Shown here piece after piece: positions 1,323 through 50,765 of a DNA stretch of 64,000 nucleotides; within the stretch, counting starts at the first letter, position 1; the number at the start of each line of letters is the position of its first letter. A model generated the notes under the pieces. That model had not been told where the DNA came from. It did no database searches and was given only the letters and a program-made list of their open reading frames with translations. The stretch lies in the NCBI GenBank assembly GCA_964436855.1, contig CAYTED010000003.1, positions 33,393 to 97,392 of the forward strand. Direction: 5' to 3'. This stretch comes from an uncultured Bdellovibrionales bacterium (GTDB lineage: Bacteria > Patescibacteriota > Minisyncoccia > Moranbacterales > UBA1568). The position numbers and the translations under genes are program-made.

Positions 1323-2297
1323 CTAATTAACTATTTCCTCCATCTTCACATTAATCACGCCGGCGCCGATAGAGGCAATTTTTGCAAAAGCGACTTTGTC
1401 GAGGTCGATAATGCGCCCCGGAACAAACGGGCCGCGATCATTGATTCGTACAATCACCGATTTTCCATTCTCCATATTCGTTACCTTCACATAACTTCCG
1501 ATCGGAAGCCACGGATTCGCCGCTGCCATCGTTCCGGTGAAGGCATACCACGATGCCGCGCCCCGATGCGACTTTCCGAGTTTCACATAGGTTCCCTGTG
1601 TCGTCAATTCCGGAACCGACTCCTTCACAATTTCCGTATTCGTAATTTTTCGATTCACCTCTTTGCCATCGTGATACGCCACACGATAGGTTGTCCGCTT
1701 GGTTCCGTTTTCTCCTTTTTGCGTCACGATCGTTTTTCGAAACGAAAGTTCCGAATCTTCCGTTATTTTTTTCTCAAATGCAATCGACGTATCTTTATGC
1801 TCCTCGCGAATCTCGACGCGTGTAACGGAAATCTTTACATCTTCTGTGAGATATTCGCCCCGTTCCGGTTTTACAATATCGTCTTCATCAAGCGAAATAT
1901 TCACATCGGAAAACATTTCTCCTATCGTTCGTGCGCGCGACACTATTCCCATTTCCTTGCCATCGACTCTTACCGTTGCCGTTCGCGCTCGCGTAATCAA
2001 AATCGTTTGATGCGGAAAAATATTCGATGAAAGTTCCGGCCATACCGTATCTTCGGATCGCAATTTTACTCCACCGTTTCGGAGCACGGCTTCCACCGTT
2101 TTCCCGGACACGCCCGAAAGTTCCGCAATAATCCCATCATCATTGATTGTTATCGTTTTTTCCCCGTCAAAATTCAATTTCTCGTCCTTATAAAAAACAA
2201 AATATATGCCTATACCAAGCAACAGAAAAAATAGGAAGATTTTCTTCCTCTTTTTCAAATCCTGATTCTTTATTCTTGATTCCTGATTCATCCGCAC
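1323..2297 (-). CDS. Membrane-anchored G5-domain protein with C-terminal RlpA-like double-psi beta-barrel (putative cell-wall binding/lytic transglycosylase-like)
   Basis: N-terminal TM helix; C-terminal GAASWYAFTGTMAAANPWLPIGSYVKVTNMENGKSVIVRINDRGPF matches the RlpA DPBB signature. Confidence 0.65.
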   Translation of the reverse strand: MRMNQESRIKNQDLKKRKKIFLFFLLLGIGIYFVFYKDEKLNFDGEKTITINDDGIIAELSGVSGKTVEAVLRNGGVKLRSEDTVWPELSSNIFPHQTILITRARTATVRVDGKEMGIVSRARTIGEMFSDVNISLDEDDIVKPERGEYLTEDVKISVTRVEIREEHKDTSIAFEKKITEDSELSFRKTIVTQKGENGTKRTTYRVAYHDGKEVNRKITNTEIVKESVPELTTQGTYVKLGKSHRGAASWYAFTGTMAAANPWLPIGSYVKVTNMENGKSVIVRINDRGPFVPGRIIDLDKVAFAKIASIGAGVINVKMEEIVN

Positions 2298-17363: not shown

Positions 17364-17942
17364 ATGAACGCACATCATATTTTTATCATTTCCGGACCAT
17401 CCGGCGCCGGCGAAGATTCCGTTATTGCCGGACTCAATCGTCTGTTTGACACGGAAACCGTCCATACCACAACAACGCGAGAACCTCGAAAGGGTGAGGG
17501 CGATGGAAATCCGTATTTTTTCGTCTCGTACGAAACATTCCAAAAGAGCATTGAGGAAGGTCGGTTTATCGAGTGGGCCGAACAATATAACGGGAATCTC
17601 TACGGTATTACCAAAGAAGAATTCGAGCGCATCGAACGTTCGGGAAAAATCGCTTTCTGGAAAATAGACTATAAGGGCGTTATTTCCGCGAAAAAACTCT
17701 TCCCGAATATTGTCGCCATTCTCCTCACCGCCCCGCTTCACACTCTCGAATCACGTATCCGCAGACGCGACAACCCCGGCGAAGATTTTATCCGGGAGCG
17801 AATGGAATACACCAAAGAATGGCTCAAGCATACCGATATCTATGACTACACGATCGAAAACACCGAGGGCAAACTCGAAGAAACCATCGAACAAGCGGCG
17901 CGCATCATTAGAACATCCCTCGAGGAAGCCGGCCGCCGTTAA
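17364..17942 (+). CDS. gmk: Guanylate kinase
   Basis: P-loop ISGPSGAGEDS and GMP-binding region; 192 aa. Confidence 0.9.
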   Translation: MNAHHIFIISGPSGAGEDSVIAGLNRLFDTETVHTTTTREPRKGEGDGNPYFFVSYETFQKSIEEGRFIEWAEQYNGNLYGITKEEFERIERSGKIAFWKIDYKGVISAKKLFPNIVAILLTAPLHTLESRIRRRDNPGEDFIRERMEYTKEWLKHTDIYDYTIENTEGKLEETIEQAARIIRTSLEEAGRR

Positions 17943-18933
17943 TGTTCCCCCGAACGCTCGGGCGCTTATTCGCCGTATTCAAAACGAGAGCCATCGAAAA
18001 AACCTCTGGCATTACGGATCGTCGTTTATCTTCGGGATTTCCGGAGGCGCCGACAGTACCGCCCTCCTCGATATCCTCGCCTTCCTTGCGCCCAAATACG
18101 ACTTTCGCATTGTGGTCGCTCATGTAAATTATCGTCTCCGTGGAACAGATTCGAACGAAGACGAACGCTTCGTCCGATCACTCGCAAAAAAATATGAGTT
18201 CCCTTGCGAGGTCCTTCGCCCCCGTATTCCAAAAAAAGGGAATCTCGAAGAAAATTTGAGAGTTCTTCGCTATGATTTCTTTGAAAAACTCCGGAAAAAA
18301 TACCGGTATGAAAGCATTGTAACCGCCCACCAAGAAGACGATCAGGCGGAAACCTTTCTCCTGCGATTGTTTCGCGGATCAGGGCTTGCGGGGCTTTCCG
18401 CTATCCCAGAGAAAAACAACTCCGTTATTCGGCCACTCCTCACGGTTTCTCGCAAAGAAATTCTCTCCTACCTCGCTACACGCAATCTCCCCTTTCGTAC
18501 CGACAAAAGCAATTTCGACACTCGTTTTCTTCGCAACCGTATCCGAAATGAGCTTCTTCCGCTCCTTGAAACACAATACGAGCAGGCTATTCGAAAAAAT
18601 TTGTCCCGTTCCGCAACACTCCTTGCGGCAGAACTTTCCTCAAAAAAAGAGTTGAGTGTTCAACTTTTTCCCTTTTTGAAAAATAAGGAAGAACAGTCGA
18701 TTACCTTTGATCGAAACGATTATCTCTCCCTTTCCGATACCGAAAAAAAACATCTCTTTCCATCTTTGTTCCATTGTTTCAAAAAAGATCTGAACCCCCT
18801 CTCCGGTAACGCCCTGCTCGAAATTGATCGGCTCCTTCTTTCGCAAAAATCAAAAAATCAATCCTTTCATATGAAAGGATTGAAACTTCTCCGAAAAGGT
18901 GATAAGGTAACCCTCGTAAAAAGCCTTTTGTAA
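17842..18933 (+). CDS. tilS: tRNA(Ile)-lysidine synthetase
   Basis: PP-loop SGGADS, conserved TilS core and C-terminal domain. No ATG/GTG/TTG lies between the gmk stop and the PP-loop, so the start either overlaps gmk (ATG at 17842) or is non-canonical. Confidence 0.8.
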   Translation: MTTRSKTPRANSKKPSNKRRASLEHPSRKPAAVNVPPNARALIRRIQNESHRKNLWHYGSSFIFGISGGADSTALLDILAFLAPKYDFRIVVAHVNYRLRGTDSNEDERFVRSLAKKYEFPCEVLRPRIPKKGNLEENLRVLRYDFFEKLRKKYRYESIVTAHQEDDQAETFLLRLFRGSGLAGLSAIPEKNNSVIRPLLTVSRKEILSYLATRNLPFRTDKSNFDTRFLRNRIRNELLPLLETQYEQAIRKNLSRSATLLAAELSSKKELSVQLFPFLKNKEEQSITFDRNDYLSLSDTEKKHLFPSLFHCFKKDLNPLSGNALLEIDRLLLSQKSKNQSFHMKGLKLLRKGDKVTLVKSLL

Positions 18934-18945
18934 CCCTCCAAAATT

Positions 18946-20799
18946 ATGGACAAAATTCTTCGACACCTCTCGACGATTCTCCTTGTTTTCTTCCTCTTTG
19001 TGGGAATCGCGATTCTCTATCAAACCCCCGAGAAAAAACCGGTCAATATTTCTCTATCCGACCTTGTTTCGGAGATCAATAACGGCGAAATCAAACAAAT
19101 TACCGTCAAGGCAAACGATCTCTCTATCGAGAAAAAAGATGGAACAAAGGGAAAAGCCGTGAAAGAATCCGAATCCGCCATTACGGAAACTCTCAAGAAC
19201 TACAATGTCGATACGGAAAAACTGAAAGAGGTTTCGATCGTTATCGAGCAAGAATCCGGTTTTTCGTATTGGGCGGCGGTTATTCTTCCGTTTCTCCTCC
19301 CTTTCCTTCTTATCGGACTGTTTATTTGGTTTATGATGCGCCAAGCACAACGCGGCAACAACCAAGCGCTTTCATTCGGTCTTTCCAAGGCGCGCATTCT
19401 CGATCCGAAGGACAAGAAAAAACGTATCACTTTTAAAGACGTCGCCGGCGCCACCGAAGCGAAAGAAGAACTGATGGAAGTCGTAGAGTTCCTGAAACAT
19501 CCGAAAAAATTCCTCGATATGGGCGCAAAAATCCCGCGCGGCGTGCTCCTGCTCGGCCCTCCCGGCACCGGAAAAACCCTTATGTCAAAGGCGGTCGCTG
19601 GAGAAGCAGGCGTTCCCTTTTTCAATATCAGCGGCTCGGAATTTGTCGAAATGTTCGTCGGTGTGGGTGCCTCACGCGTCCGCGATCTCTTCAAACAAGC
19701 GAAGAAAAACGCGCCCGCTATCGTTTTTATCGACGAAATCGATGCCGTTGGACGACACCGCGGCGCGGGACTTGGCGGCGGACACGATGAGCGCGAACAA
19801 ACCTTGAATCAAATTCTCGTCGAAATGGACGGGTTCGAAACCGATTCAAGCGTTATTGTTATCGCCGCTACCAATCGTCCCGATGTCCTCGATCCGGCGC
19901 TTCTCCGTCCGGGACGCTTTGATCGCCGTGTTACGATGGATCTTCCGGATATCAACGAGCGGGAGCAAATCCTCTCTATTCACATTAAAGGAAAACCGAT
20001 CATCGACGGAATCAATATCCGAAATATCGCCGAACGTACCCCGGGATTTTCCGGCGCCGATCTTGCAAACCTTGTCAACGAAGCCGCCATTCTTGCCACT
20101 CGGAGAGGGAAGAAAAAAATCGAACTCATCGAACTCCTTGAGTCGATCGAAAAAGTTATCCTCGGTCCGGAACGGCGAAGTCGCGTCATCAATGAAAAAG
20201 AAAAAAGCGTCGTTGCCTATCACGAAGCGGGGCACGCGCTTGTTGCCGCATCGCTCCCGAATGCCGATCCGGTACAAAAAGTGTCTATTGTTTCCCGTGG
20301 ACATGCCGGCGGATACACGCTTGCTGTCCCAACCGAAGACAAAATGCTCCACTCAAGTTCATATTTTTCCGATGAACTCGCCACACTTCTCGGCGGGTAC
20401 GCGAGTGAGAAGCTCATCTTCGACGATACGACCACCGGTCCCTCAAACGACCTCGAGCGCGCCACCGCTATGGCACGCAATATGGTCACCCGCTATGGAA
20501 TGAGTCGCCTCGGATCCCGAACCTTCGGACACAAAGAAGAGCTTATTTTCCTCGGCAAAGAACTTCACGAAGAACGAAATTATTCCGAAAAGACCGCCGA
20601 AGCGATTGATGCCGAAGTCTCGCGGCTCGTTACCGAGGCATTCGAACGTGCGACATCCATTCTCACCGACAAGCGCACGACACTCGATACCATCGCAAAA
20701 ACCCTCCTTGAAAAAGAAACTCTTGAGAAAGATGAATTCAATGCGCTCGTTGGTATTGTTGAACCAAGCACAGCCTCGTCAGCAAAAGAAGTCATATAA
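18946..20799 (+). CDS. ftsH: ATP-dependent zinc metalloprotease FtsH
   Basis: Two N-terminal TM helices, AAA module (GPPGTGKT, second region of homology) and HEAGHAL zinc site. Confidence 0.97.
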
Positions 20800-21989: not shown

Positions 21990-23003
21990 TCAATCTCCGT
22001 AAATCGGTTCCTTTGTCGCCGCGCGAAATTTAATCGTCGCTTCGCGTTGAATGTCCGGGAGGAATCGTGCGCCCGGCCCAAGTACTTGCGTCGCCCCATT
22101 TATGAGCGCATCGGCCTGCGCCGCGGTCGATCGCATTTCGCTCAAGATCTGGGCCTGCACCGTCCCTACGCCCTGTTGAACCAAGTTATTCATCGCCTTA
22201 TTGAGCTGCGCCGCAACAAGCGACCCGGCAAGTTCGGTCGGATTGGTCGCTCCCGCTATTATTTTGTTCGGCAAGTCTTGCGCGTTGGAATATAAGTCTT
22301 TCAGAAGAATTCCGGGTGCGGATACCTTGTTATCATCCCCGCCGACCGACGTTCCCTTGAATCCCTGATTCGCAATCGACCGCACTTCAGCAAGTTTTTT
22401 CTCCTCTTCAAGTTTCTTTTGATATACCTGCTCCATTGTCAGAGAATACCCGAGTGGATTGTTTAAAGGATTTGCCACGAGTTCACGGAATGCCCCCCAA
22501 TCACCCCGATCAATCGCATCGACTCCCCCGTAATTCTGTATGGTTACCGTTCCCGGATTGTCTCCATAAATGGTCGCTCGCGCTCGCGCCTCAAGCTGTC
22601 GCGCATAATTCCCGCCATTCCCAATACCATAATCGGTTGCGCTGATATAATTCGCCGACGATCCCATCCCTCGCGTTGTCAGTGTAAACGCATCGTTCAT
22701 ATAATCCCGTGTTCGCACTTCCGGAAGCGCGAACAATTCTTCCCGCCAATCGGTCACAAATCTCGGTCCACCACCACCTACGCCACCAATCAGTTGATTT
22801 ATCTGTTGGTTAAGTGCAGTGAACGCTGTCATTTTGAGCGCCCCAAGTTCTATTCCTTCCATTCGATGTGCGGATTGATTTGCAATAAATGTCCATATTG
22901 CAGCAGCTTGATTCGTACCCCAGCCGTCCGCACGAACCGATATCGGTAAAAGTGCCAGGATCGTCCACAAAAAAAAGATGGATTTTTTAGCAAAAGAAAT
23001 CAT
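21990..23003 (-). CDS. Hypothetical secreted protein (signal peptide, Gly/Asn/Gln-rich)
   Basis: N-terminal signal peptide MISFAKKSIFFLWTILALLPISVRA; no known domain recognised. Confidence 0.5.
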   Translation of the reverse strand: MISFAKKSIFFLWTILALLPISVRADGWGTNQAAAIWTFIANQSAHRMEGIELGALKMTAFTALNQQINQLIGGVGGGGPRFVTDWREELFALPEVRTRDYMNDAFTLTTRGMGSSANYISATDYGIGNGGNYARQLEARARATIYGDNPGTVTIQNYGGVDAIDRGDWGAFRELVANPLNNPLGYSLTMEQVYQKKLEEEKKLAEVRSIANQGFKGTSVGGDDNKVSAPGILLKDLYSNAQDLPNKIIAGATNPTELAGSLVAAQLNKAMNNLVQQGVGTVQAQILSEMRSTAAQADALINGATQVLGPGARFLPDIQREATIKFRAATKEPIYGD

Positions 23004-23011
23004 ACAAGTTT

Positions 23012-24025
23012 CTATAATTCTATTGGAACATTTGCAATTTCATATTCTGAAAGTTTTCCTTGGAAGTCTTCAACAAAAATCGAAAAGACATTCATAAATG
23101 CTTGAATTTTGGCGAGTACTGCTATACCACGAAGTGGATCGCCAGATGAATCATTAAGAAATTTTGCGTCTTCCTTGAGTTGAATGGCGTACTTTGCCAT
23201 TCGAAGTGCTTTCATATGTGTTTCTACCATAGCTTCCGGAACTTCCATTTCTCGAATTTGTTCTAACATGTGTTCTGCGTTTTTCGAAAGGTCCTCAACA
23301 TAGCCAAAATTTCCGGTAGAAAGGCTTGAAAAGGATTGATCAACAATAGATGTAGCAGTAGATTCAAGTTCCTTTATGTCTCGAAATGCCACAGGAGAAT
23401 TATTCACAAAAATATAAGCCATCGATGTCAGGTATTCCACGATATACTCCTTCTCCTTTGCCTTTCGTTCTTCCGCATCGAGTTTTTTCTCTTTCTTGGA
23501 AAGCTTTCGGATTTTTATTTCATCAATGCTTACTTCCGGCAGCACCACCTCATTATCATCCATACCATCGAGCGCTTTCGATACCGCCGCGTCCACCTGA
23601 TCGAGCGATATGTCACCCTGACCCGACTCCGTCACCAGATCCGCAACACTTTCCGAAACTTTTTTCGTGAGATTTTCTTTTGAATTATCGTTTTGCGACG
23701 AAGATTCCGCAGTCGATGTTTTTTGAATAATTCTATCCCCCGGCGCTTTCACAAGCGGATCATATCCGCCGCGCACTTCCACACCATCAGAATACCCATC
23801 TCCATCCGTATCTTTTACAAATGGATCGGTTCCATAGAGACGTTCTTCTTCATTGCTTAAACCATCACCATCACTATCTTCGAAAATATTTTTTCCGGAA
23901 AACGTATCGTCCGCCGAGACAAAAACAGTCACGGAAAAAAAGGCAAGAAGAAAAAACAAAGCTGTCGGCCGCACGCACAAGCCGAACAGCTTTTTTATAC
24001 TCTGAAAAAAAATATCACTCAACAT
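23012..24025 (-). CDS. Hypothetical secreted protein with thrombospondin type-3-like Ca-binding repeats
   Basis: Signal peptide/TM, then DSDGDGLSNEEERLYGTDPFVKDTDGDGYSDGVE (TSP3-type DxDxDG repeats) and a coiled-coil region. Confidence 0.5.
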   Translation of the reverse strand: MLSDIFFQSIKKLFGLCVRPTALFFLLAFFSVTVFVSADDTFSGKNIFEDSDGDGLSNEEERLYGTDPFVKDTDGDGYSDGVEVRGGYDPLVKAPGDRIIQKTSTAESSSQNDNSKENLTKKVSESVADLVTESGQGDISLDQVDAAVSKALDGMDDNEVVLPEVSIDEIKIRKLSKKEKKLDAEERKAKEKEYIVEYLTSMAYIFVNNSPVAFRDIKELESTATSIVDQSFSSLSTGNFGYVEDLSKNAEHMLEQIREMEVPEAMVETHMKALRMAKYAIQLKEDAKFLNDSSGDPLRGIAVLAKIQAFMNVFSIFVEDFQGKLSEYEIANVPIEL

Positions 24026-24389: not shown

Positions 24390-24990
24390 CAATTTGTTCC
24401 ACGTGGAACAAATTGATCTTGTAGTTTTCTTTCATAATGTTCCACGTGGAACAATCTTTTACAAAATCTTCATTGAACACAATTTATCCACATATAATTC
24501 ATTAAAAATTCGAATTTTGTTCCACGTGGAACAATTTACCTTGCCTTTATCAGATGTTCCACGTGGAACATCCACGAAAACAACGCGTTTCAGTATAAAT
24601 TTTCATATTTTAATCGTAATTTATGAATAAATTCAATAAAAGTATAACAAAAAAAAGTTCCACGTGGAACAAATTTTCAAATACTTATTTCAATAATGTT
24701 CCACGTGGAACATAAAATTGTACTTATACACTTATTATTCAGTATTATAGATAAAAAAATCATCCATGATTTCGTTTTAAGTACAGAATGTTCCACGTGG
24801 AACAATTTCATATATCTTTTTCACATACTTTTGTTCCACGTGGAACAAATTGGTGATGAAATTACATTTACACACTTGTTATACATTAAATACTAATAAT
24901 AGAGCTACTCAAAATTGTATTTTCTACAAAAATGTTCCACGTGGAACAATTTTTTGAATCTATACTGTCTCTTTGTTCCACGTGGAACAT
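24390..24990. promoter_or_regulatory. parS: Array of ten parS-like 16-bp perfect palindromes TGTTCCACGTGGAACA (centromere-like ParB-binding sites)
   Basis: GTTCCACGTGGAAC cores at 24396, 24439, 24519, 24556, 24657, 24698, 24790, 24833, 24934 and 24975. They form five pairs, 37-43 bp apart within a pair and ~123-144 bp between pairs. The sequence differs from Firmicute parS TGTTNCACGTGAAACA only by a symmetric G/C change. Confidence 0.75.
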
Positions 24991-27325: not shown

Positions 27326-27411
27326 TGGTGGGCCAGGTGGGACTCGAACCCACATGCTTTTGAGGCACAACATTTTAAGTGTCGCGCGTATACCAATTCC
27401 GCCACTGGCCC
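27326..27411 (-). tRNA. tRNA-Leu (anticodon TAA), long variable arm, CCA encoded
   Basis: Acceptor GGGCCAG/CTGGCCC, anticodon loop CTTAAAA, long variable arm, T-loop TTCGAGT. Confidence 0.85.
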
Positions 27412-27443
27412 AAGATTTTATGTTATTCAACAAGTATTTTTTG

Positions 27444-27514
27444 AGGTCGCGTCCGGAATTGAACCGGAGTAAAGGGTTTTGCAGACCCGTGCCTCACCAC
27501 TCGGCCACGCGACC
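27444..27514 (-). tRNA. tRNA-Cys (anticodon GCA)
   Basis: Acceptor GGTCGCG/CGCGACC, anticodon loop CTGCAAA, discriminator U73 typical of tRNA-Cys. Confidence 0.8.
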
Positions 27515-27614
27515 AAATTTTCGAAGAATAACAGAATCAGCCTAGCAAATGCGCGGAGGAGAGTCAAAAGAAAAATCCCGTTCGCGAGGAACGGGATTCT
27601 TCACTCTCTTTGTT

Positions 27615-28184
27615 TTAGTCTACGACTTCGGCCTCCAAATTGCGGCGACCGAAAGCGAAGGCTTGTTGTTTGGTTTCCATATAAATATCGAAGTGATTCC
27701 CCTTAATCGCTCCACCGCGGTCTTCACAGCGGTAGACACCCATTCCTTCGATCGCGATCTTCGCACCGAACGGGTATTCCGGCGGACAGGCGAGGGTTCG
27801 ATTTTCCTCTACCTTGAGTCCCGAAGAGGTAATTCCGTTCGATTTTCCACACTCATCTGCGGCGGCCGTATAGGCAGACGCGTTGATGATAAACTTCTCC
27901 TTCGGAAGGTTTTCCCACTTTTCAGCTTGCTTTGCCTTCCATTTTTCAAGCTTGGCATCCTCTTTGTTCGCGGGATATTGGGTGGATAACTCGTTTTCGA
28001 GCGACTTATCCACATGTTCCACACGAAAGGTCCAATCGAGAAGAAACGGGTCCGAAGAAAAAGAATACAATGCGAGCTCCGTATTGAGCGTTTCAGCCGA
28101 CTCATCTGACGCAAGCGCCGTAGATGTCAGAGAAACAACTACTACCGCAAAGAGTGCTGAACGTAATAGCTTCTGAAAAGCCAT
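27615..28184 (-). CDS. Secreted 3D-domain protein (MltA/YabE-like cell-wall binding/hydrolase domain)
   Basis: Signal peptide; C-terminal TLACPPEYPFGAKIAIEGMGVYRCEDRGGAIKGNHFDIYMET matches the 3D (Asp-Asp-Asp) domain. Confidence 0.7.
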   Translation of the reverse strand: MAFQKLLRSALFAVVVVSLTSTALASDESAETLNTELALYSFSSDPFLLDWTFRVEHVDKSLENELSTQYPANKEDAKLEKWKAKQAEKWENLPKEKFIINASAYTAAADECGKSNGITSSGLKVEENRTLACPPEYPFGAKIAIEGMGVYRCEDRGGAIKGNHFDIYMETKQQAFAFGRRNLEAEVVD

Positions 28185-28273
28185 ATATTGCCTTAGAATC
28201 TTATCCTGGCCGCCCCTCCGGCCGGGTCGCCTCCTTGAACCTGCTCACAATTGAGCTCTAAGGTTGACTGGAC

Positions 28274-28302
28274 AATATAGCACATTTTATTATTCCTGTC
28301 AA
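28274..28302 (-). promoter_or_regulatory. Sigma70-type promoter (TTGACA-17-TATATT) for the 3D-domain gene, with ~90-nt GC-hairpin leader
   Basis: Minus-strand TTGACAGGAATAATAAAATGTGCTATATT; the leader contains a CCGGCCGGAGGGGCGGCCAGG hairpin before the start codon. Confidence 0.5.
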
Positions 28303-28329
28303 TGATATTATTCGAATTATGGCTTTATA

Positions 28330-28356
28330 AAAGCAAAAAACCTCTTTTCAGAGGTC
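28330..28356 (-). terminator. Rho-independent terminator downstream of the small membrane-protein gene
   Basis: CCTCTGAAAAGAGG hairpin followed by TTTTTTGCTTTT on the minus strand. Confidence 0.65.
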
Positions 28357-28396
28357 GTTTTACAGCTCACTATTCGTGATTGACAAAAGCCCTCGG

Positions 28397-28618
28397 CTAG
28401 AGCTTGCCGTTGAGGTATTTGCCGGCCACACTCAAGGCAAAAGAGGGGAGAATAATAAAAACTGTGCCAAAAATAAGCCTGATAAGCAGGATTTGGGTCG
28501 GGGTATCAGGCTGATCGGGGCCAAAAGGACTTGTCATGACCAGAATAATTCCCAAAACCCCAAAAGCAACTGAGGCATAGATAAATATTCGCGTAGCTAT
28601 CTTTTGCATGTTTTGCAT
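28397..28618 (-). CDS. Hypothetical small membrane protein (2 TM)
   Basis: Start at MQNMQKIATRIF; two hydrophobic helices; own terminator. Confidence 0.4.
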   Translation of the reverse strand: MQNMQKIATRIFIYASVAFGVLGIILVMTSPFGPDQPDTPTQILLIRLIFGTVFIILPSFALSVAGKYLNGKL

Positions 28619-28768
28619 ATACCGAGTATACCATGAGAGACATTCTTGTCCGAATAAATAGAGAGCCTCTTGCAATTCCTTTTTTCAAAAATGTACCGTT
28701 CCCTTATGTTGCAGCGAAGTACACAAATGAAAAGCCGCCACCCCCTCTCAAGAGAGCAGCGGCCACAG

Positions 28769-29041
28769 TCAGTTTTTCGTGTCCACCTCCAGCCGTAATC
28801 CTTGGATATTCCCAAATCTCATTTCTGTGAAGGGCACTTGCCCGGTTAGATTGAGCATTTGGAGAACCAATTGATGGAGCTCATTCCCTCCTGAATTTGA
28901 CCGCGTCCTCGATGCAAAATCGTCAATCACCCGCTCTATTTGGGAGAGGAGCGCTCTCGTCTCGTTAAAGTTTCTTAGATTGTGGATATAGGTTTGTGTG
29001 CCTATCCAAAGCGGACTCATTAAAATACTAATCTTCATCAT
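28769..29041 (-). CDS. Hypothetical protein
   Basis: ~90 aa ORF (MMKISILMSPLW...) between the tRNA cluster and the GIY-YIG gene; no recognisable motif. Confidence 0.3.
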   Translation of the reverse strand: MMKISILMSPLWIGTQTYIHNLRNFNETRALLSQIERVIDDFASRTRSNSGGNELHQLVLQMLNLTGQVPFTEMRFGNIQGLRLEVDTKN

Positions 29042-29197
29042 CTTGTCCACCCCAGTTCGACTGAACTTAGGGGTAATAAAAAACAAGGCTCTGGTAAGCC
29101 TCGTTTTTAGCTGCGTGCCACGTGATGAACAAAGTGAATTTTACGTGGAGCGGGTAACCCTTCTTCATAAATCTTCGGACGGGCAGGCGGGAGAATC

Positions 29198-29455
29198 TCA
29201 CTCGCTTTTAAAGTCACTTTCAAACATCTCTTTTAGTTTTCTCCTACCAGCACCACTTTTCCACCATAACTCACGTCTTTTTGCTTCTTGTACAGTTTTG
29301 AATTCTTCTGTGAATATGATTCTCAATGGTCGACGACTTTTTGTAGCCTTTACACGGCCGGACTCATGTTGCTTGAATCGTTCGGTGATATTTTGAGAAT
29401 AACCAACATAGGTCCTTTTATCTTTCAAACTTAAAAGGATATAGATGCCATACAT
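29198..29455 (-). CDS. GIY-YIG nuclease domain protein
   Basis: MYGIYILLSLKDKRTYVGYSQNITERFKQH = GIY-(10)-YVG motif with the conserved Arg and Glu; 85 aa. Confidence 0.75.
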   Translation of the reverse strand: MYGIYILLSLKDKRTYVGYSQNITERFKQHESGRVKATKSRRPLRIIFTEEFKTVQEAKRRELWWKSGAGRRKLKEMFESDFKSE

Positions 29456-29544
29456 ATTCTATTTGAGAGCGGGCCGCCTTTCATCCAGCCCGAAGGGCGG
29501 ATGGGCGAGCCTCGCTCAAAAATTTTGCTCAAGAAAAATTTTTG

Positions 29545-29616
29545 AGCGGGTAACGGGAGTCGAACCCGTATCTAGTCCTTGGCAAGGACTCATAATAGCC
29601 GCTATACGATACCCGC
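29545..29616 (-). tRNA. tRNA-Gly (anticodon GCC)
   Basis: Acceptor GCGGGTA/TACCCGC, anticodon stem AGTCC/GGACT with loop TTGCCAA, T-loop TTCGACT, U73. Confidence 0.8.
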
Positions 29617-29735
29617 TTTCGCAAAGCCTTCGGCGGGCAAACCCGCTTTTGCTTTACAGTTTTGTACAAAACTCCCCCCTCAATCAATTCATTCTGTGGG
29701 ACCGGTTGGAATCGAACCAACGACCAATCGGTTAT

Positions 29736-30359
29736 GCTTCTCACTATTGCTTTCGCAACTTTTTTCAAATTTGTGAGCTGGACTATCCCTTCACCCAAAC
29801 AGGGTGTCTGCCGTCTAGTCTCTACACCTTCCCCAGCAAAACGCAGGGGCTTGGCTCGGGATTGTCATGCGACTTGCAAAAAGTTTGTCGTTTAGATTTC
29901 CCCGAATTTGGCAGAGTATCACTTGGAAATTACTTCCCAAGCAGCCCTTCGTATTCATTACATCTTGTGTTATTGTTTCGCTATGAAAAAAATCACAACT
30001 TGTACCGTGTGTGGCAAGACATTATCCGGAAGGCAACTTCGGTTTTGTTCGATGCAATGCAAGAACCAAGTTCACCAATCATACCAAGCGCAACAGGCTC
30101 GGGGACTCAAAAGAAAAATGCTTCTCTTAAAGCGATTTGGTGGAAAATGCTCCATCTGCAATTACGACAAAAACCTCGCCGCACTTACATTTCATCATAT
30201 CGACCCGAAGCAAAAGAGTTTCCAACTTGATATGCGATCTCTTTCGAATCGAAAACAATCCCAAATCGATACCGAGATACGAAAATGCATACTCGTTTGC
30301 AATAACTGTCATGCCGAACTCCACAACCCACAACACAATTTGAAATGAACTTTTTGAGC
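29736..30359 (-). mobile_element. Group I intron (Azoarcus-like IC3 core) in the tRNA(CAU) anticodon loop
   Basis: The intron RNA contains GGGGAAATCTAAACG, CCCGAGCCAAGC, and GAAGGTGTAGAGACTAGACGGCA followed by GGGATAGTCC (P7 GACTA/TAGTC). The 5' splice site follows U33 and the intron ends in G. Of the ~624 nt, ~366 nt are the antisense HNH ORF. Confidence 0.8.
29983..30348 (+). CDS. HNH homing-type endonuclease (encoded antisense within the group I intron)
   Basis: CxxC...CSICNYDKNLAALTFHHIDPKQKSF...LVCNNCHAELHN = zinc-finger plus HNH motif; ORF 29908-30348, probable start at M26 (29983). Confidence 0.75.
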   Translation: MKKITTCTVCGKTLSGRQLRFCSMQCKNQVHQSYQAQQARGLKRKMLLLKRFGGKCSICNYDKNLAALTFHHIDPKQKSFQLDMRSLSNRKQSQIDTEIRKCILVCNNCHAELHNPQHNLK

Positions 30360-30418
30360 CGACCGCTCTAACCCCTGAGCTACGGTCCCTTCTTGTCTCT
30401 CACCTTCCCTGAGCTCTG

Positions 30419-30490
30419 TGCCGGAGGGCAGAATTGAACTGCCGACGCAAGGATTTTCAGTCCTTCGCTCTACCACTGAGCTACTCCGGC
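30419..30490 (-). tRNA. tRNA-Phe (anticodon GAA)
   Basis: Acceptor GCCGGAG/CTCCGGC, anticodon loop CTGAAAA, T-loop TTCAATT. Confidence 0.85.
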
Positions 30491-30542
30491 ATTTGAAACG
30501 AACACCTCTCTATTATCCACACATTATCCCAAAAATCAACGG

Positions 30543-30616
30543 TGCACGCTCAAGGATTCGAACCTTGGACCCCCTCGGTGTAAACGAGGTGCTCTAACCA
30601 ACTGAGCTAAGCGTGC
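30543..30616 (-). tRNA. tRNA-Val (anticodon TAC)
   Basis: Acceptor GCACGCT/AGCGTGC, anticodon stem CCTCG/CGAGG with loop TTTACAC, T-loop TTCGAAT. Confidence 0.85.
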
Positions 30617-30672
30617 GAACAACATTATTACTGTACCACAAAAAGAAAAAGCGCTTTGTGCGCTTTATTCTG

Positions 30673-30756
30673 TGCCCAAGAGAGGACTCGAACCTCCAAT
30701 CCCTTGCGGGAACTAGCACCTCAAGCTAGCGCGTATACCAATTCCGCCACCTGGGC
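30673..30756 (-). tRNA. tRNA-Leu (anticodon GAG), long variable arm
   Basis: Acceptor GCCCAGG/CTTGGGC, anticodon stem CTAGC/GCTAG with loop TTGAGGT, long variable arm, T-loop TTCGAGT. Confidence 0.8.
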
Positions 30757-46423: not shown

Positions 46424-47197
46424 TTATTTCTTTACTTCTGTATGTTCCGCATGCTTCTCTTTGAAAATAAATTGCTGCTGAATAATAGTGAAAACCGTAG
46501 AAACAAGCCAGTACAGAGAAAGCCCCGCCGGAAACGTAATACCGACAAAAAGCGTCATCCCGGGTCCGAGAATAAGCATTTGCTTATTCATAATAGTCGC
46601 GAAGTCCGGCTTTTCATCCGATTGTTCCTCTTTCTTTTCCTTTTCTTTTCGCGCTTCTGCGGATTTTTTCTGCACATCAAGCATCATCTTGGTCTGATAA
46701 TACTGTGCCGCCGCCGCAAGAATCGCAAAAAGATAGCTCGGTTTCGCAAGATCGGCAATTCCGAAAAAGTGATGCGAGATCTCTCCGGGATGAGAAACAA
46801 AAGAGTAGAGTTGTGCGGCATCGACGGAAAATCCTGCCGCGGAAACGCTGATAATCGCCCGATAAATCGCAATCAGAAAAACGACCTGCACAATAAGCGG
46901 GAGGCACCCGGCAAACGGATTCACCTTATGCTCCTGATAGAGTTCCATAAGGGCTTTCTGTTGCGCCGCTTTGTCATCTTTGTATTTCCGTTGGATTTCC
47001 TTCGTGAGCGGTTGGATTTCCTGCAGCTCCTTTTGCGATTTGATTTGTTTTTTGTAGAGCGGAATAAAGAGGACTCTCAAAAGAAGGGTTGTCGCGATAA
47101 TCGCGAGGCCAAAATCGCTCCCCGGGATGGTATTGTAGAAAAAAATGAGCGAGTTATAAATCGGCTGAGCGACAAGAGTATGGAAAAGTTCAGTCAT
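46424..47197 (-). CDS. yidC: Membrane protein insertase YidC (short, Gram-positive type)
   Basis: 257 aa; conserved NPFAGCLPLIVQ helix and YidC/Oxa1 core. Confidence 0.9.
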   Translation of the reverse strand: MTELFHTLVAQPIYNSLIFFYNTIPGSDFGLAIIATTLLLRVLFIPLYKKQIKSQKELQEIQPLTKEIQRKYKDDKAAQQKALMELYQEHKVNPFAGCLPLIVQVVFLIAIYRAIISVSAAGFSVDAAQLYSFVSHPGEISHHFFGIADLAKPSYLFAILAAAAQYYQTKMMLDVQKKSAEARKEKEKKEEQSDEKPDFATIMNKQMLILGPGMTLFVGITFPAGLSLYWLVSTVFTIIQQQFIFKEKHAEHTEVKK

Positions 47198-47889: not shown

Positions 47890-49332
47890 ATGACCAATGA
47901 AGAGCTCTGGAAAGCCGCACTTGGACAAATCGAGCTTTCCATTTCCAAGGCAAACTTCATAACGTGGTTTAAAAACACCGCCCTTCTCTCGATTTCCGAT
48001 GGATCGGTTTCTATCGCCGTCCCAAATGGATTCGCAAAAGAATGGCTTGAAAACAAGTACAATCTTTACATTCTTCGAGCGCTTCGGGATATTTCCGGAA
48101 CCGATATCAAAAAAATTCTCTGTATTATACAAGCCGAGCAAGGATCCACTCCTTCGGAACATCGGCCTCGCGGTCCGTTTATCGATGCCGTAAAAGCTCC
48201 GGAAAGGCTTTCTTTCGAACAAAACACGACTTATACACCGTCTTCACACACCCCGTCCGGCTCCTTTCAGCCGATTTCCATTGCAAAAAACGAACCCATT
48301 TACCCGCATCACTCTAATTTGAACCATCGGTATACTTTCGAAAATTTTATCGTTTCGGAGAACAACGAACTCGCCCGAGCGGCCTGTTATGCCGTTTCCC
48401 AAAATCCCGGAACTATCTACAACCCGCTTTTTATTTATGGCGGCGTCGGACTCGGGAAAACCCACCTTCTTCAATCTATCGGAAATGAACTCGTAAAAAA
48501 TCACCCGGAAAAACGCATTAAATACATTACTTCCGAACGATTTACCACCGAACTTGTCGATTCCATTCGCAATCAAACAATTGATAAATTTAAAGAATAC
48601 TACCAACATATCGACCTTCTCATTATCGATGATGTACAGTTTCTTTCCGGCAAAGAAAAGACGCAAAATGAATTTTTCCATATTTTTAATGCGCTCTACC
48701 AACTCAATAAACAAATTGTCATTTCGAGCGATCGACCACCACATGCCATCGCCACTCTTGAAGATCGGCTTCGCTCGCGATTCCAAGGCGGGATGATTAC
48801 TGATATCAGTCGTCCAAATTATGAGACACGAATCGCCATTCTTGAAGCGAAAATGCAAGAAAAAGGCTTTCTTCTCGATCGAGAATCAGTTCATTATATT
48901 TCGGAAAATATCACTCAAAACGTCCGCGAACTTGAGGGGGCGTTGAATCGTATTGTTGCGTACTGTGAATTTCACAAAATCACTCCTTCTCTCTCGGCGA
49001 CCCAAAAAATCCTCTCCCAACTCATTTTTCAAACTAAGAAAAACCTCCAAACCGAAGATATTTTCCGCATTATTACCGAATATTATAAAGTCGAAAAAGA
49101 CGATCTCATTCGAAAAGGACGGAAAAAGGAAATTTCCCATCCGCGACAGGTTGCAATGTACCTGATGCGAAGCGAGCTTCAAACTCCTTTCTCCAGTATT
49201 GGAGAAATTTTCGGCGGTCGAGATCACACCACCGCGCTTCACGCATTTGAAAAAATCCATCAAGACACCCAAGAAAATCAAAAAATAAAAGAGGAGCTCA
49301 ACACCCTAAAAGACCACCTTTATTATTCTTAA
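47890..49332 (+). CDS. dnaA: Chromosomal replication initiator DnaA
   Basis: 480 aa; AAA+ Walker A GGVGLGKTHL, sensor motifs and C-terminal DnaA-box-binding helix-turn-helix. Confidence 0.97.
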   Translation: MTNEELWKAALGQIELSISKANFITWFKNTALLSISDGSVSIAVPNGFAKEWLENKYNLYILRALRDISGTDIKKILCIIQAEQGSTPSEHRPRGPFIDAVKAPERLSFEQNTTYTPSSHTPSGSFQPISIAKNEPIYPHHSNLNHRYTFENFIVSENNELARAACYAVSQNPGTIYNPLFIYGGVGLGKTHLLQSIGNELVKNHPEKRIKYITSERFTTELVDSIRNQTIDKFKEYYQHIDLLIIDDVQFLSGKEKTQNEFFHIFNALYQLNKQIVISSDRPPHAIATLEDRLRSRFQGGMITDISRPNYETRIAILEAKMQEKGFLLDRESVHYISENITQNVRELEGALNRIVAYCEFHKITPSLSATQKILSQLIFQTKKNLQTEDIFRIITEYYKVEKDDLIRKGRKKEISHPRQVAMYLMRSELQTPFSSIGEIFGGRDHTTALHAFEKIHQDTQENQKIKEELNTLKDHLYYS

Positions 49333-49613: not shown

Positions 49614-50765
49614 ATGAAAATTCTTTGTACTCAAGAAAATATTACAAAAGCTATCGGGTCACTCGAGCGAGTAACCGGAAAGCAATCAAGTCTCCCGATT
49701 CTTGCGAATTTTCTCCTGGAAACAAGTAAAGGACGACTGAAGATATCTGCTACTAATCTTGAAATCGGAGTGATTGCGCATATTGGAGCGAAAATCGAGC
49801 GTGAGGGAAAAATTGTGGTTCCGGCAAAACTTTTGAGTAGTTTTATTCATAACCTTCCAGAAGGGGATGTGGTTTCCTTAGAAACGGAAAATCAAACGCT
49901 TCATATCGTGAGCGGGAATTATGATATGAAGATAAAGGGATTTGAATCAAAGGATTTCCCGATCATTCCGCAGTTTGAAGAGGAATATCTCTTTTCCCTT
50001 CCAGCACAGTCGCTCAAAAATGCCCTTTCAAGACTTCTCCCGTGCGTTTCTCTTTCGGATACCCGTATTGAGCTCACGGGAGTGCATATCTTCTTTTTTG
50101 AAAAAGAGCTTCATTTGGCGGCGACGGATAGTTTTCGGCTCGGGGAAGAGATTTTTTCTCTCCAAGATCTTCCGGAAAAGGAAAAATACGATGTGTTCCG
50201 GGAAAAAACCGAAAGCCTTATCTTGCCGGCAACGACGCTTCAGGAAGTCGCCCGGGATATTTTTCCGGAAACAGAACGAGTGGAAATTATGGTTTCTGAA
50301 AATCAAATTTTCTTCCAAATCGGGGATATTCAAATTGTTTCGAGGCTTATCAATGGGAAATATCCGGATTATAAACAGATTATCCCCCAAAACTTCACCT
50401 TTAACGTGGAAATTGAGCGGGAGCTTCTTTTGCGGGCGATCCGGATCGGAAGTATGTTTTCGTCTCAAAGTTCCGGAGAAGTGAGTTTTCGGGTGATTCC
50501 GAACGATGAAATGGTGGTGGTGAAGGCGGTTTCTCGGGAAATCGGAGAAAACACCGTGAAAATACCGGCGAAAATAGAAGGAAATGGAGAAATAACGCTT
50601 ACCTTTAATCCGAGATATATTCTCGATGGGCTTTCGGTGACACATTCTTCAAAAGTGCTTTTCTCTTGCAATACGCCGCAAAGTCCCGCTTCTCTGCGAA
50701 TGGTTGATGAAAAAGGTTCCGTGATTTCCGATTTCCTTTATATTATGATGCCGGTCCGAAAGTGA
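49614..50765 (+). CDS. dnaN: DNA polymerase III beta sliding clamp
   Basis: 383 aa, three-domain clamp; N-terminal MKILCTQENITKAIGSLERV typical. Confidence 0.95.
   Translation: MKILCTQENITKAIGSLERVTGKQSSLPILANFLLETSKGRLKISATNLEIGVIAHIGAKIEREGKIVVPAKLLSSFIHNLPEGDVVSLETENQTLHIVSGNYDMKIKGFESKDFPIIPQFEEEYLFSLPAQSLKNALSRLLPCVSLSDTRIELTGVHIFFFEKELHLAATDSFRLGEEIFSLQDLPEKEKYDVFREKTESLILPATTLQEVARDIFPETERVEIMVSENQIFFQIGDIQIVSRLINGKYPDYKQIIPQNFTFNVEIERELLLRAIRIGSMFSSQSSGEVSFRVIPNDEMVVVKAVSREIGENTVKIPAKIEGNGEITLTFNPRYILDGLSVTHSSKVLFSCNTPQSPASLRMVDEKGSVISDFLYIMMPVRK

Follow-up and report, generated by a model that had tools for sequence, protein, structure and literature searches.

The DNA analysed here (the window) is a 64,000-nucleotide (nt) stretch of contig CAYTED010000003.1, a bacterial chromosome segment that encodes rplS, a pseudouridine synthase, uracil-DNA glycosylase (UDG), ribonucleotide reductase, S1, TilS, FtsH, DnaA, DnaN and YidC. 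On its minus strand, a transfer RNA gene with the anticodon CAU, tRNA(CAU), was found to be split in the anticodon loop by a group I intron, and an HNH endonuclease of 121 amino acids (aa) is encoded within this intron on the opposite strand. We regard the locus as very probably a composite mobile element, in which a self-splicing IC3 intron inserted at U33|C34 of the tRNA(CAU) gene carries the antisense HNH gene. The parts of the element are located as follows.

30357..30389, minus strand: 5' exon of tRNA(CAU), GGGACCGUAGCUCAGGGGUUAGAGCGGUCGGCU, with the acceptor 5' strand, the D arm and the 5' anticodon stem up to U33
29697..29736, minus strand: 3' exon of tRNA(CAU), CAUAACCGAUUGGUCGUUGGUUCGAUUCCAACCGGUCCCA, from C34-A35-U36 to the discriminator A
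29737..30356, minus strand: group I (IC3-like) intron of 620 nt, CAAAAAG...GAGAAG, with the omega-G at 29737
29983..30348, plus strand: HNH endonuclease open reading frame (ORF) of 121 aa, antisense to the intron and inside the P1 loop
29948..29982, plus strand: predicted HNH promoter, with a -35-like TTCGTA at 29948-29953 and an extended -10, TGT-TATTGT, at 29968-29976
29942..29947, minus strand: internal guide sequence GGGCUG (P1 3' strand), pairing with C+1, U-1, C-2, G-3, G-4 and C-5
29948..29979, minus strand: 3' strand of the long, imperfect P1-extending duplex, paired with the initial ~30 nt of the intron (30325-30355)
29922..29941, minus strand: P2 hairpin, CUUGGGAA-GUAA-UUUCCAAG, with a GNRA tetraloop
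29740..29915, minus strand: catalytic core, P3-P9, from the alignment of 66 sequences
29915-29910 with 29812-29807, minus strand: P3
29906-29900 with 29861-29855, minus strand: P4
within 29740..29915, minus strand: P5, P6 and P6a
29822-29816 with 29785-29780, minus strand: P7, with a bulged A
29806-29802 with 29796-29792, minus strand: P8
29777-29773 with 29744-29740, minus strand: P9
P9 domain, minus strand: P9a and P9b, each hairpin capped by a GAAA loop

The two halves of the tRNA gene, with 620 nt between them, join into a 73-nt tRNA(CAU), to which the 3' exon contributes the 3' anticodon stem, the variable loop UGGUC, the T arm and the acceptor 3' strand. The split had been recognised in the original prediction, and both halves were read again here; the coordinates given for them (30392-30360 and 29735-29696) proved to be shifted by 1-3 nt from the correct ones (30389-30357 and 29736-29697), and the spacing of 624 nt is corrected to the 620 nt of the intron. 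The split gene is called neither by standard ARAGORN nor by the Rfam tRNA model, both of which report nine tRNAs in the window, and it was recovered by ARAGORN run with the intron option. Since this mode misplaces the boundary and labels the gene Leu or Ser, the exon boundaries were re-derived from group I rules. An identical mature tRNA can be obtained from three possible splice positions, and U33|C34, the insertion point favoured earlier, is the only one of them with a U ending the 5' exon and a G ending the intron, in the window as in all 66 loci compared.

A scan of 185,579 species-representative genomes returned 282 HNH relatives, and the architecture was examined in the best 80 of these 282. 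A strict automatic test, which required a U33|C34 split in a tRNA(CAU), an intron with a length of 594-641 nt and a final G, and an HNH gene on the opposite strand, was passed by 65 of the 80 loci. Visual inspection revealed the architecture in six further loci (L001, L013, L040, L041, L049 and L075), of which five also have an Rfam group I match; in another (L072), which is cut by a contig end, only the 5' exon and the antisense HNH gene are visible. Genomes that carry the element include OY782391.1 and OZ246404.1. The shared architecture is therefore seen in about 72 of the 80 loci, in Patescibacteria and Chloroflexota. The layout of the 5' exon of the window recurs in the 65 related loci, and when joined, the exons of 65 loci give a tRNA(CAU) fold without exception, with 99% of the cloverleaf positions paired and compensatory changes at ten of the 21 cloverleaf pairs. 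Selection therefore acts on the two exons as parts of a single tRNA.

The intron itself is a real group I ribozyme of the IC3 type. The Rfam model Intron_gpI (RF00028, gathering score 50) matches positions 29998-29756 of the minus strand over its full length (1-253) with 56.6 bits (E = 1e-11), and nine relatives checked against the same model score between 54.9 and 82.4 bits. This is the covariance-model check that had been proposed for the locus, and a P1-P9 structure could be fitted. The match begins about 360 nt past the 5' splice site because the P1 loop is very large. A structure was drawn on the sequence of the window and then counted on the alignment of 66 sequences, with partners slid by 1-3 columns as controls. 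In P2-P9, standard pairs occupy 97.8% of 3,491 cells, against 35-47% in the slid controls, and both sides have changed in 35 of the 53 pairs; none of 500 shuffles reached the observed values. P2 has compensatory changes at all eight of its pairs, with 95% of the cells paired, and the P3/P7 pseudoknot is among the core helices backed by covariation. P4 and the joining segments are invariant across the 66 loci and P7 is invariant save for one covarying pair, as expected of a catalytic centre. The IC3 traits observed are a compact core without P5abc, GNRA loops on P2 and P9, and homology to introns labelled as IC3.

The splice sites follow the same rules in the whole set. The last intron nucleotide is the omega-G in 66 of 66 loci. 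The guide sequence sits about 410 nt downstream of the 5' splice site, and its pairing with positions +1, -1 (a U.G wobble), -2 and -3 is kept in every locus, with that at -4 in 63 and that at -5 in 50 of the 66. P1 is extended by a duplex between the start of the intron and the stretch next to the guide, whose energy calculated by RNAduplex is -18.4 kcal/mol in the window, compared with -8.4 for shuffled sequences. Over the 66 loci the mean is -17.9 against -9.0 kcal/mol when shuffled, with z < -2 in 57 of them. When counted at a fixed register, the extension is 59% paired against 37-53% for slid controls; as this test gave moderate support only, the duplex-energy test was relied on instead. 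Such a duplex would clamp the ORF-bearing loop and bring the splice site to the guide.

The HNH ORF, which had been predicted at these same positions, is intact in the window and ends in a TGA stop 8 nt from the 5' splice site; no comparable ORF was found on the intron's own strand. The protein sequence has two CxxC pairs and an HNH motif. A CxxC...CxxxC zinc ribbon makes up the N-terminal part and precedes the HNH domain, which scores 22.8 bits against a cutoff of 21.4 in Pfam (HNH, PF01844). Residues C56, C59, H71, H72, N89, C106, N108, C109, H110 and H114 are among those invariant in the family. A protein search of metagenomes found 358 clusters, mostly of 121-124 aa, with a mean column identity of about 72% and with all zinc ligands and HNH residues invariant. 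The AlphaFold model of the 121-aa protein has a predicted local distance difference test (pLDDT) score of 90.5, and a sequence search of solved structures gave weak HNH matches only.

Copies of the HNH gene are intact in 62 of the 66 loci. Two loci (L003 and L014) have one premature TAA each, and two others, L076 from Gracilibacteria and L039, have an in-frame TGA at positions of invariant glycines and were counted as intact, since this fits genetic code 25. The presence of TGA at conserved glycines argues that the nuclease gene is translated in, and adapted to, recoded hosts. Three classes were observed for the position of the stop codon: 8-13 nt inside the intron, as in the window; across the splice junction, where its A is the complement of U33 (31 loci); and within the antisense of the 5' exon.

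Upstream of the ORF, the -10 hexamer of the window lies 6 nt from the ATG at 29983. Of 62 loci, 58 have a TAnnnT motif that occupies precisely positions -12 to -7 relative to the ATG, against 0-16 loci for any other offset, and the -10 hexamer frequently has a TG ahead of it. A TTGACA-like hexamer is present 16-18 nt further upstream in about half of the loci, and a motif resembling a Shine-Dalgarno sequence in only four of the 62. These signals suggest that the HNH gene probably has its own promoter of the sigma-70 type, giving a leaderless messenger RNA (mRNA); because of the 6-nt gap between the -10 hexamer and the ATG, transcription is predicted to start at the A of the start codon. The -35 hexamer directly adjoins the guide's complement, so that the promoter, the P1 extension and the C-terminal codons overlap. 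This predicted promoter, the location of the ORF in the P1 loop and the conservation of the architecture in dozens of genomes go beyond what had been noted earlier.

The closest HNH relatives were found in metagenome-assembled genomes of Moranbacteria and other Patescibacteria, L001 having 81% protein identity and L003 an identical tRNA; a look-up of the exact HNH protein sequence gave no match. Intron features form a Patescibacteria type and a Chloroflexota type which largely track host taxonomy, and copies of the Chloroflexota type also occur in Latescibacteria, Armatimonadota and one Doudnabacteria genome. Other relatives of the HNH gene are free-standing, always on the strand opposite to any nearby tRNA gene. 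In an Anaerolineaceae locus (L073, 1258-1875), the free-standing gene is divergent from an intact tRNA(CAU); this copy is a 165-aa variant with a duplicated N-terminal zinc ribbon. Four loci of Gammaproteobacteria (L074, L055, L063 and L080) have a group I intron on the opposite strand next to the HNH gene, which is not contained in it. In the one of these that was read at sequence level (L074, 1040-1900), the HNH gene is situated between rpoD and a tRNA(CAU), just upstream of that tRNA, whose gene is interrupted at the Azoarcus position, 36/37, by another group I intron that lacks an ORF. The HNH genes of L011 and L018 have no tRNA or intron nearby.

Phage contigs contain such genes as well. 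Six IMG/VR contigs (L202-L207, at about 1470-1930) bear free-standing HNH relatives of 118-145 aa with 49-56% identity. The relatives in L203, L205, L206 and L207 belong to a phage tRNA cluster, to whose tRNAs they are antisense, and their stop codon directly adjoins a tRNA(CAU) without an intron, at its 3' end. When phage genomes were searched at the nucleotide level with the entire element, the only match was a 70-nt core block of a cyanophage psbA intron. Among cultured phages, the full-length matches of the protein search were all remote (36-40% identity) and the others covered the catalytic half alone; the one full-length relative that was checked does not adjoin tRNAs. The comparison with intron-less alleles that had been suggested found at least 120 intron-less tRNA(CAU) genes in metagenomes sharing the same 29-nt junction, some of them nearly identical to the exons of intron-bearing loci. 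The intron-less junction reads GGTCGGCT|CATAACCGA, and the intron-less site ...AGAGCGGTCGGCTCATAACCGATTGGTCG.... The contexts of the HNH family and the intron-less alleles fit a homing endonuclease that would target the anticodon region of tRNA(CAU), and the pattern also fits a proposed route in which free-standing endonuclease genes invade introns (reviewed in PMC3984707).

Among the known systems compared, the ORF-less tRNA-Ile2(CAU) introns of Acidobacteriota (PMC13011429, Table S5) have the same tRNA type, the same 33/34 site and the same IC3 subgroup as the window. The 217-nt core of the window aligns end to end with a 244-nt Acidobacteriota intron (e.g. GCA_016700075.1) at 66.7% identity, through the P9/P9a/P9b domain and up to the 3' end ...UAGUNNGNAAG|CAUAA; two IC3-labelled introns (PMC13011429) align with the core, at 66.7% and 66.5% identity. 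The distance from the 5' splice site to the guide is about 46 nt in the Acidobacteriota introns and about 400 nt in the window, where it holds the antisense HNH gene and its predicted promoter. Because the cores align and the loops differ in this manner, the intron of the window can be described as a 33/34 Ile2 intron with a cassette in L1.

The tRNA-Ile intron of Azoarcus is inserted at 36/37, with a 5' exon ending in CAU. It shares with the intron of the window a tRNA-Ile(CAU) host, a compact IC3 fold, GNRA loops on P2 and P9, and the blocks AAAUUCGG.GAAA.CUAA, CCGAGCCAAGC, GAAGGUGUAGAGACUAGACGGCA and AUAGUCCAG, whereas it is 205 nt long without an ORF (PMC13168695 for length and exons) and the intron of the window is 620 nt long with one. 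The description of the latter as Azoarcus-type holds only at the level of the IC3 subgroup, of whose tRNA introns the shared blocks are typical; orthology with the Azoarcus intron was rejected, as the insertion is at 33/34 rather than 36/37 in 66 of 66 loci and the alignment is with the Acidobacteriota Ile2 introns.

The homing endonuclease I-Ssp6803I is encoded on its intron's own strand. The cyanobacterial tRNA-fMet intron bearing it is likewise inserted at 33/34 of a CAU tRNA together with an endonuclease gene (PMC13011429), but its host is an initiator and its enzyme is of the PD-(D/E)XK family, in contrast to the HNH enzyme of the window. The tRNA-Asn(GUU) introns of Patescibacteria, at 35/36 and with HNH genes (PMC13011429), occur in the same phylum and also in the anticodon loop. 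They differ in a sense-strand ORF, in the subgroup (IA), in tRNA and site and in the N-terminus of the protein, while the catalytic half of the HNH protein of the window matches the sense-strand HNH of a Paceibacteria tRNA-Asn 35/36 intron with 46% identity over 81 aa (E = 1e-21). Endonuclease genes antisense to the ribozyme, with expression signals of their own, are also found in eukaryotic nuclear ribosomal DNA introns (e.g. L2066, PMC9548176); those genes are of the His-Cys box type, with spliceosomal introns and expression of the RNA polymerase II type, unlike the gene of the window. Finally, the free-standing relatives of the HNH gene beside tRNA(CAU), with or without an intron, resemble collaborative homing, where a free-standing endonuclease acts with an ORF-less intron (F-CphI with the psbA intron of cyanophage S-PM2; T4 SegB in a tRNA cluster). 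The situation of these free-standing relatives is the one proposed to precede the invasion of an intron by an endonuclease gene (PMC3984707). The HNH gene of the window already resides within its intron, and the nuclease families of the collaborative systems (Endo VII-like, GIY-YIG) differ.

In the mechanism we propose, the pre-tRNA would be transcribed from the minus strand along with the neighbouring tRNAs. The exon end CGGCU and the intron nucleotide C+1 would pair with the guide GGGCUG to form P1, which would be prolonged as the initial ~30 nt of the intron form a long, imperfect duplex with the ~30 nt that precede the guide, closing off a loop of about 350 nt, while P2-P9 would adopt the usual core fold. 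An external guanosine would then attack after U33, the omega-G (29737) would dock and the exons would be ligated to give the loop CUCAUAA. TilS would convert C34 to lysidine, a step possible only once the exons are ligated. The closed-off loop corresponds to the reverse complement of the zinc-ribbon/HNH gene, which would be transcribed from the other strand. The nuclease would make a cut or a nick close to the insertion site in tRNA(CAU) alleles that lack the intron, so that repair copies the intron in (homing). Computation has shown the fold, the splice-site rules, the conservation of ORF and promoter, the features of the tRNA and the occurrence of alleles without an intron; splicing activity, leaderless expression, the cleavage target and homing are inferred.

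The conversion of C34 depends on which tRNA is the host. The features of the joined exons are those of a non-initiator: G1:C72 is present in 54 of 55 distinct sequences and C11:G24 in all 55, and the initiator G29-G31/C39-C41 run (the GGG/CCC anticodon stem) is absent from the 55 distinct joined sequences. An initiator tRNA was rejected on these grounds, in line with the earlier view that the tRNA is closer to Ile2. The modifying enzyme is encoded in the window:

17710..18933, plus strand: tilS (tRNA-Ile lysidine synthetase), TIGR02432 182 bits against a cutoff of 93.6, Pfam PP-loop

The gene lies about 11 kb from the split tRNA (12 kb in the original prediction), with ftsH directly after it at 18946-20799, and TilS is the expected trans-acting enzyme for C34 of the spliced tRNA. 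A search of complete E. coli genomes gave as its best match the tRNA-Ile gene beside mug (84% identity, E = 3e-10), which is taken here to be ileX, and no tRNA-Met was present among the ten matches listed; as E. coli is a single reference organism, the support from this comparison is moderate. The G27.U43 pair and the UGGUC variable loop also agree with E. coli tRNA-Ile2. The host tRNA is thus, with good probability, tRNA-Ile2, the lysidine-dependent decoder of AUA. An elongator tRNA-Met, in which the intron would work alike and TilS would have no role, appears a distinctly unlikely host given the E. coli matches and the two Ile2-like features, even though ARAGORN labels every joined sequence tRNA-Met(cat), a call made because the anticodon alone cannot separate Met from Ile2. 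Introns listed as 'Met (CAT) 33/34' are known from Microgenomatia (PMC13011429, Table S3), but the exons of these Met genes are unrelated in sequence, and the homologous ORF-less intron lies in genes assigned to Ile2 by two methods (PMC13011429).

The remaining accounts concern whether the element with its tRNA-Ile2 host is mobile, and whether the gene is alive. An intron that is immobile and inherited vertically, with the HNH protein in a role other than homing (maturase or host function), would explain why the intron features largely follow the two taxonomic types, why the protein is more conserved than is usual for a selfish nuclease and why just two of the 66 HNH copies are degraded. We nevertheless consider this account unlikely, since the HNH family also stands free beside tRNA(CAU) in phages, in Gammaproteobacteria and in one Anaerolineaceae, with no such intron to assist, since copies of the Chloroflexota type are found in Latescibacteria, Armatimonadota and a Doudnabacteria genome, and since nearly identical tRNAs are found with and without the intron; the existence of ORF-less relatives of the intron also argues that the ribozyme does not need the protein. 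A pseudogene, in which a decaying element has disrupted the tRNA and the sequence matches are its remnants, is highly improbable. Standard tRNA finders do miss the gene and the Rfam score in the window is only 6.6 bits over the threshold, yet the exons, helices, splice-site nucleotides, ORF and promoter are kept, with compensatory changes, in 66 loci of several phyla, and there is no other CAU tRNA within the 64-kb window. The pseudogene reading was rejected because all the parts are conserved. Several observations do weigh against a mobile element in a tRNA-Ile2 gene as we describe it. Much of the inheritance may be vertical, because the intron groups largely follow taxonomy; many relatives have a stronger -10 and -35 than the window (TATTGT and TTCGTA); the Pfam HNH score barely exceeds its threshold; and the top Foldseek matches of the protein model are weak (E about 0.1-1, template modelling (TM) score about 0.3), comprising the HNH nucleases T4 EndoVII, Gme HNH, Cap5 and Cas9 HNH. 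Likewise, sequence alone cannot tell Ile2 from elongator tRNA-Met, and the CAU tRNAs of the rest of the genome lie outside the view that the window gives.

The mobile composite element might also be read, tentatively, in a wider manner in which the antisense HNH cassette is a portable unit derived from phages, the different forms are intermediates of invasion and the tRNA transcript is an antisense repressor. The cassette, consisting of a sigma-70 promoter and a leaderless ORF, would have been captured from the free-standing endonuclease genes of phage tRNA clusters. The observed forms would then make a series, from a gene free-standing by an intact tRNA(CAU), through one by an intron-bearing tRNA(CAU), to one embedded in the P1 loop. 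Both the pre-tRNA and the excised intron match the mRNA of the nuclease perfectly in antisense, so that the tRNA transcript, being abundant, would keep the expression of the nuclease low.

Introns of group I that bear endonuclease genes are considered rare in bacterial tRNA genes. A survey of 4,934 complete genomes (Nakagawa et al. 2026, PMC13011429) found just 12 endonuclease-bearing tRNA introns, with HNH genes solely in tRNA-Asn and tRNA-Leu introns and none in a CAU tRNA intron, and no IC-type intron in the tRNAs of Patescibacteria. In a 2014 review of bacterial group I introns (PMC3984707), the terms 'antisense' and 'opposite strand' are both absent, and no description of the element was found in searches of full-text literature available without subscription. 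The family of tRNA introns with an antisense HNH gene is large and unreported by recent surveys, and it seems to have been overlooked. Its unusual features are the nuclease gene on the opposite strand, the apparently leaderless mRNA and, in some members, the overlap of this gene with the splice site or a tRNA exon. An essential tRNA is hidden from standard annotation in many genomes of Patescibacteria and Chloroflexota, which affects completeness checks and tRNA inventories. The family also offers a natural series for studying how endonuclease genes invade introns, as well as an HNH enzyme that is compact and well conserved and that probably has a defined target in the anticodon region of tRNA(CAU).

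The split gene belongs to a run of seven tRNA genes on the minus strand (27326-30756), as had been noted before, with Leu-GAG, Val-UAC, Phe-GAA, the split gene and Gly-GCC, and farther on Cys and Leu-UAA. Its surroundings include the following features.

30418-30490, minus strand: tRNA-Phe(GAA), neighbour of the split gene, without an intron in the window
29544-29616, minus strand: tRNA-Gly(GCC), neighbour of the split gene
30512..30539, minus strand: promoter-like site upstream of tRNA-Phe, TTGATT-16-GATAAT, a consensus match only

The promoter-like site is the likely start of a transcript carrying tRNA-Phe, the split tRNA and tRNA-Gly. A terminator-like hairpin with a T-run, also a consensus match only, was observed at 29632-29647 (plus strand), in the interval that separates tRNA-Gly from the split tRNA, where it would halt plus-strand read-through short of the HNH gene.

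A second tRNA intron was noticed in the closest relatives. The tRNA-Phe(GAA) genes of L001 (1993-2238, minus strand) and L004 (about 1923-2237, minus strand) have a group I intron of about 245 nt, for which Rfam gives 57 bits in L001; the tRNA-Phe of the window has none, so that this intron is a presence/absence polymorphism between the window and these relatives. Directly downstream of tRNA-Gly(GCC) lies the GIY-YIG gene mentioned in the original prediction, an ORF of 85 aa with a GIY-YIG domain (29198-29455, minus strand; Pfam 59.9 bits). The idea that the region is a hotspot for selfish elements has this one small ORF as its sole basis.

Elsewhere in the window, two adjoining ORFs of 337 aa are found on the minus strand at 23012-24025 and 21990-23003, one with bacterial thrombospondin type-3 repeats and the other without a Pfam match. 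The genes yidC (46424-47197, minus strand), dnaA (47890-49332, plus strand) and dnaN (49614-50765, plus strand) coincide with the minimum of the cumulative GC skew and with low GC at 48-50 kb, and the window therefore probably spans the chromosomal replication origin. Ten exact copies of a 14-bp palindrome, GTTCCACGTGGAAC, occur at 24396-24988, against about 0.01 copies expected by chance. They are arranged in five pairs, with a spacing of about 40 bp within a pair and 100-140 bp between pairs, and the intergenic DNA that contains them is AT-rich (GC 0.37). The array also includes a perfect DnaA box, TTATCCACA, at about 24484. A role of this array (24.4-25.0 kb) as the replication origin was rejected, since dnaA, dnaN and the GC-skew minimum are at 48-50 kb; it may be an operator or iteron array.

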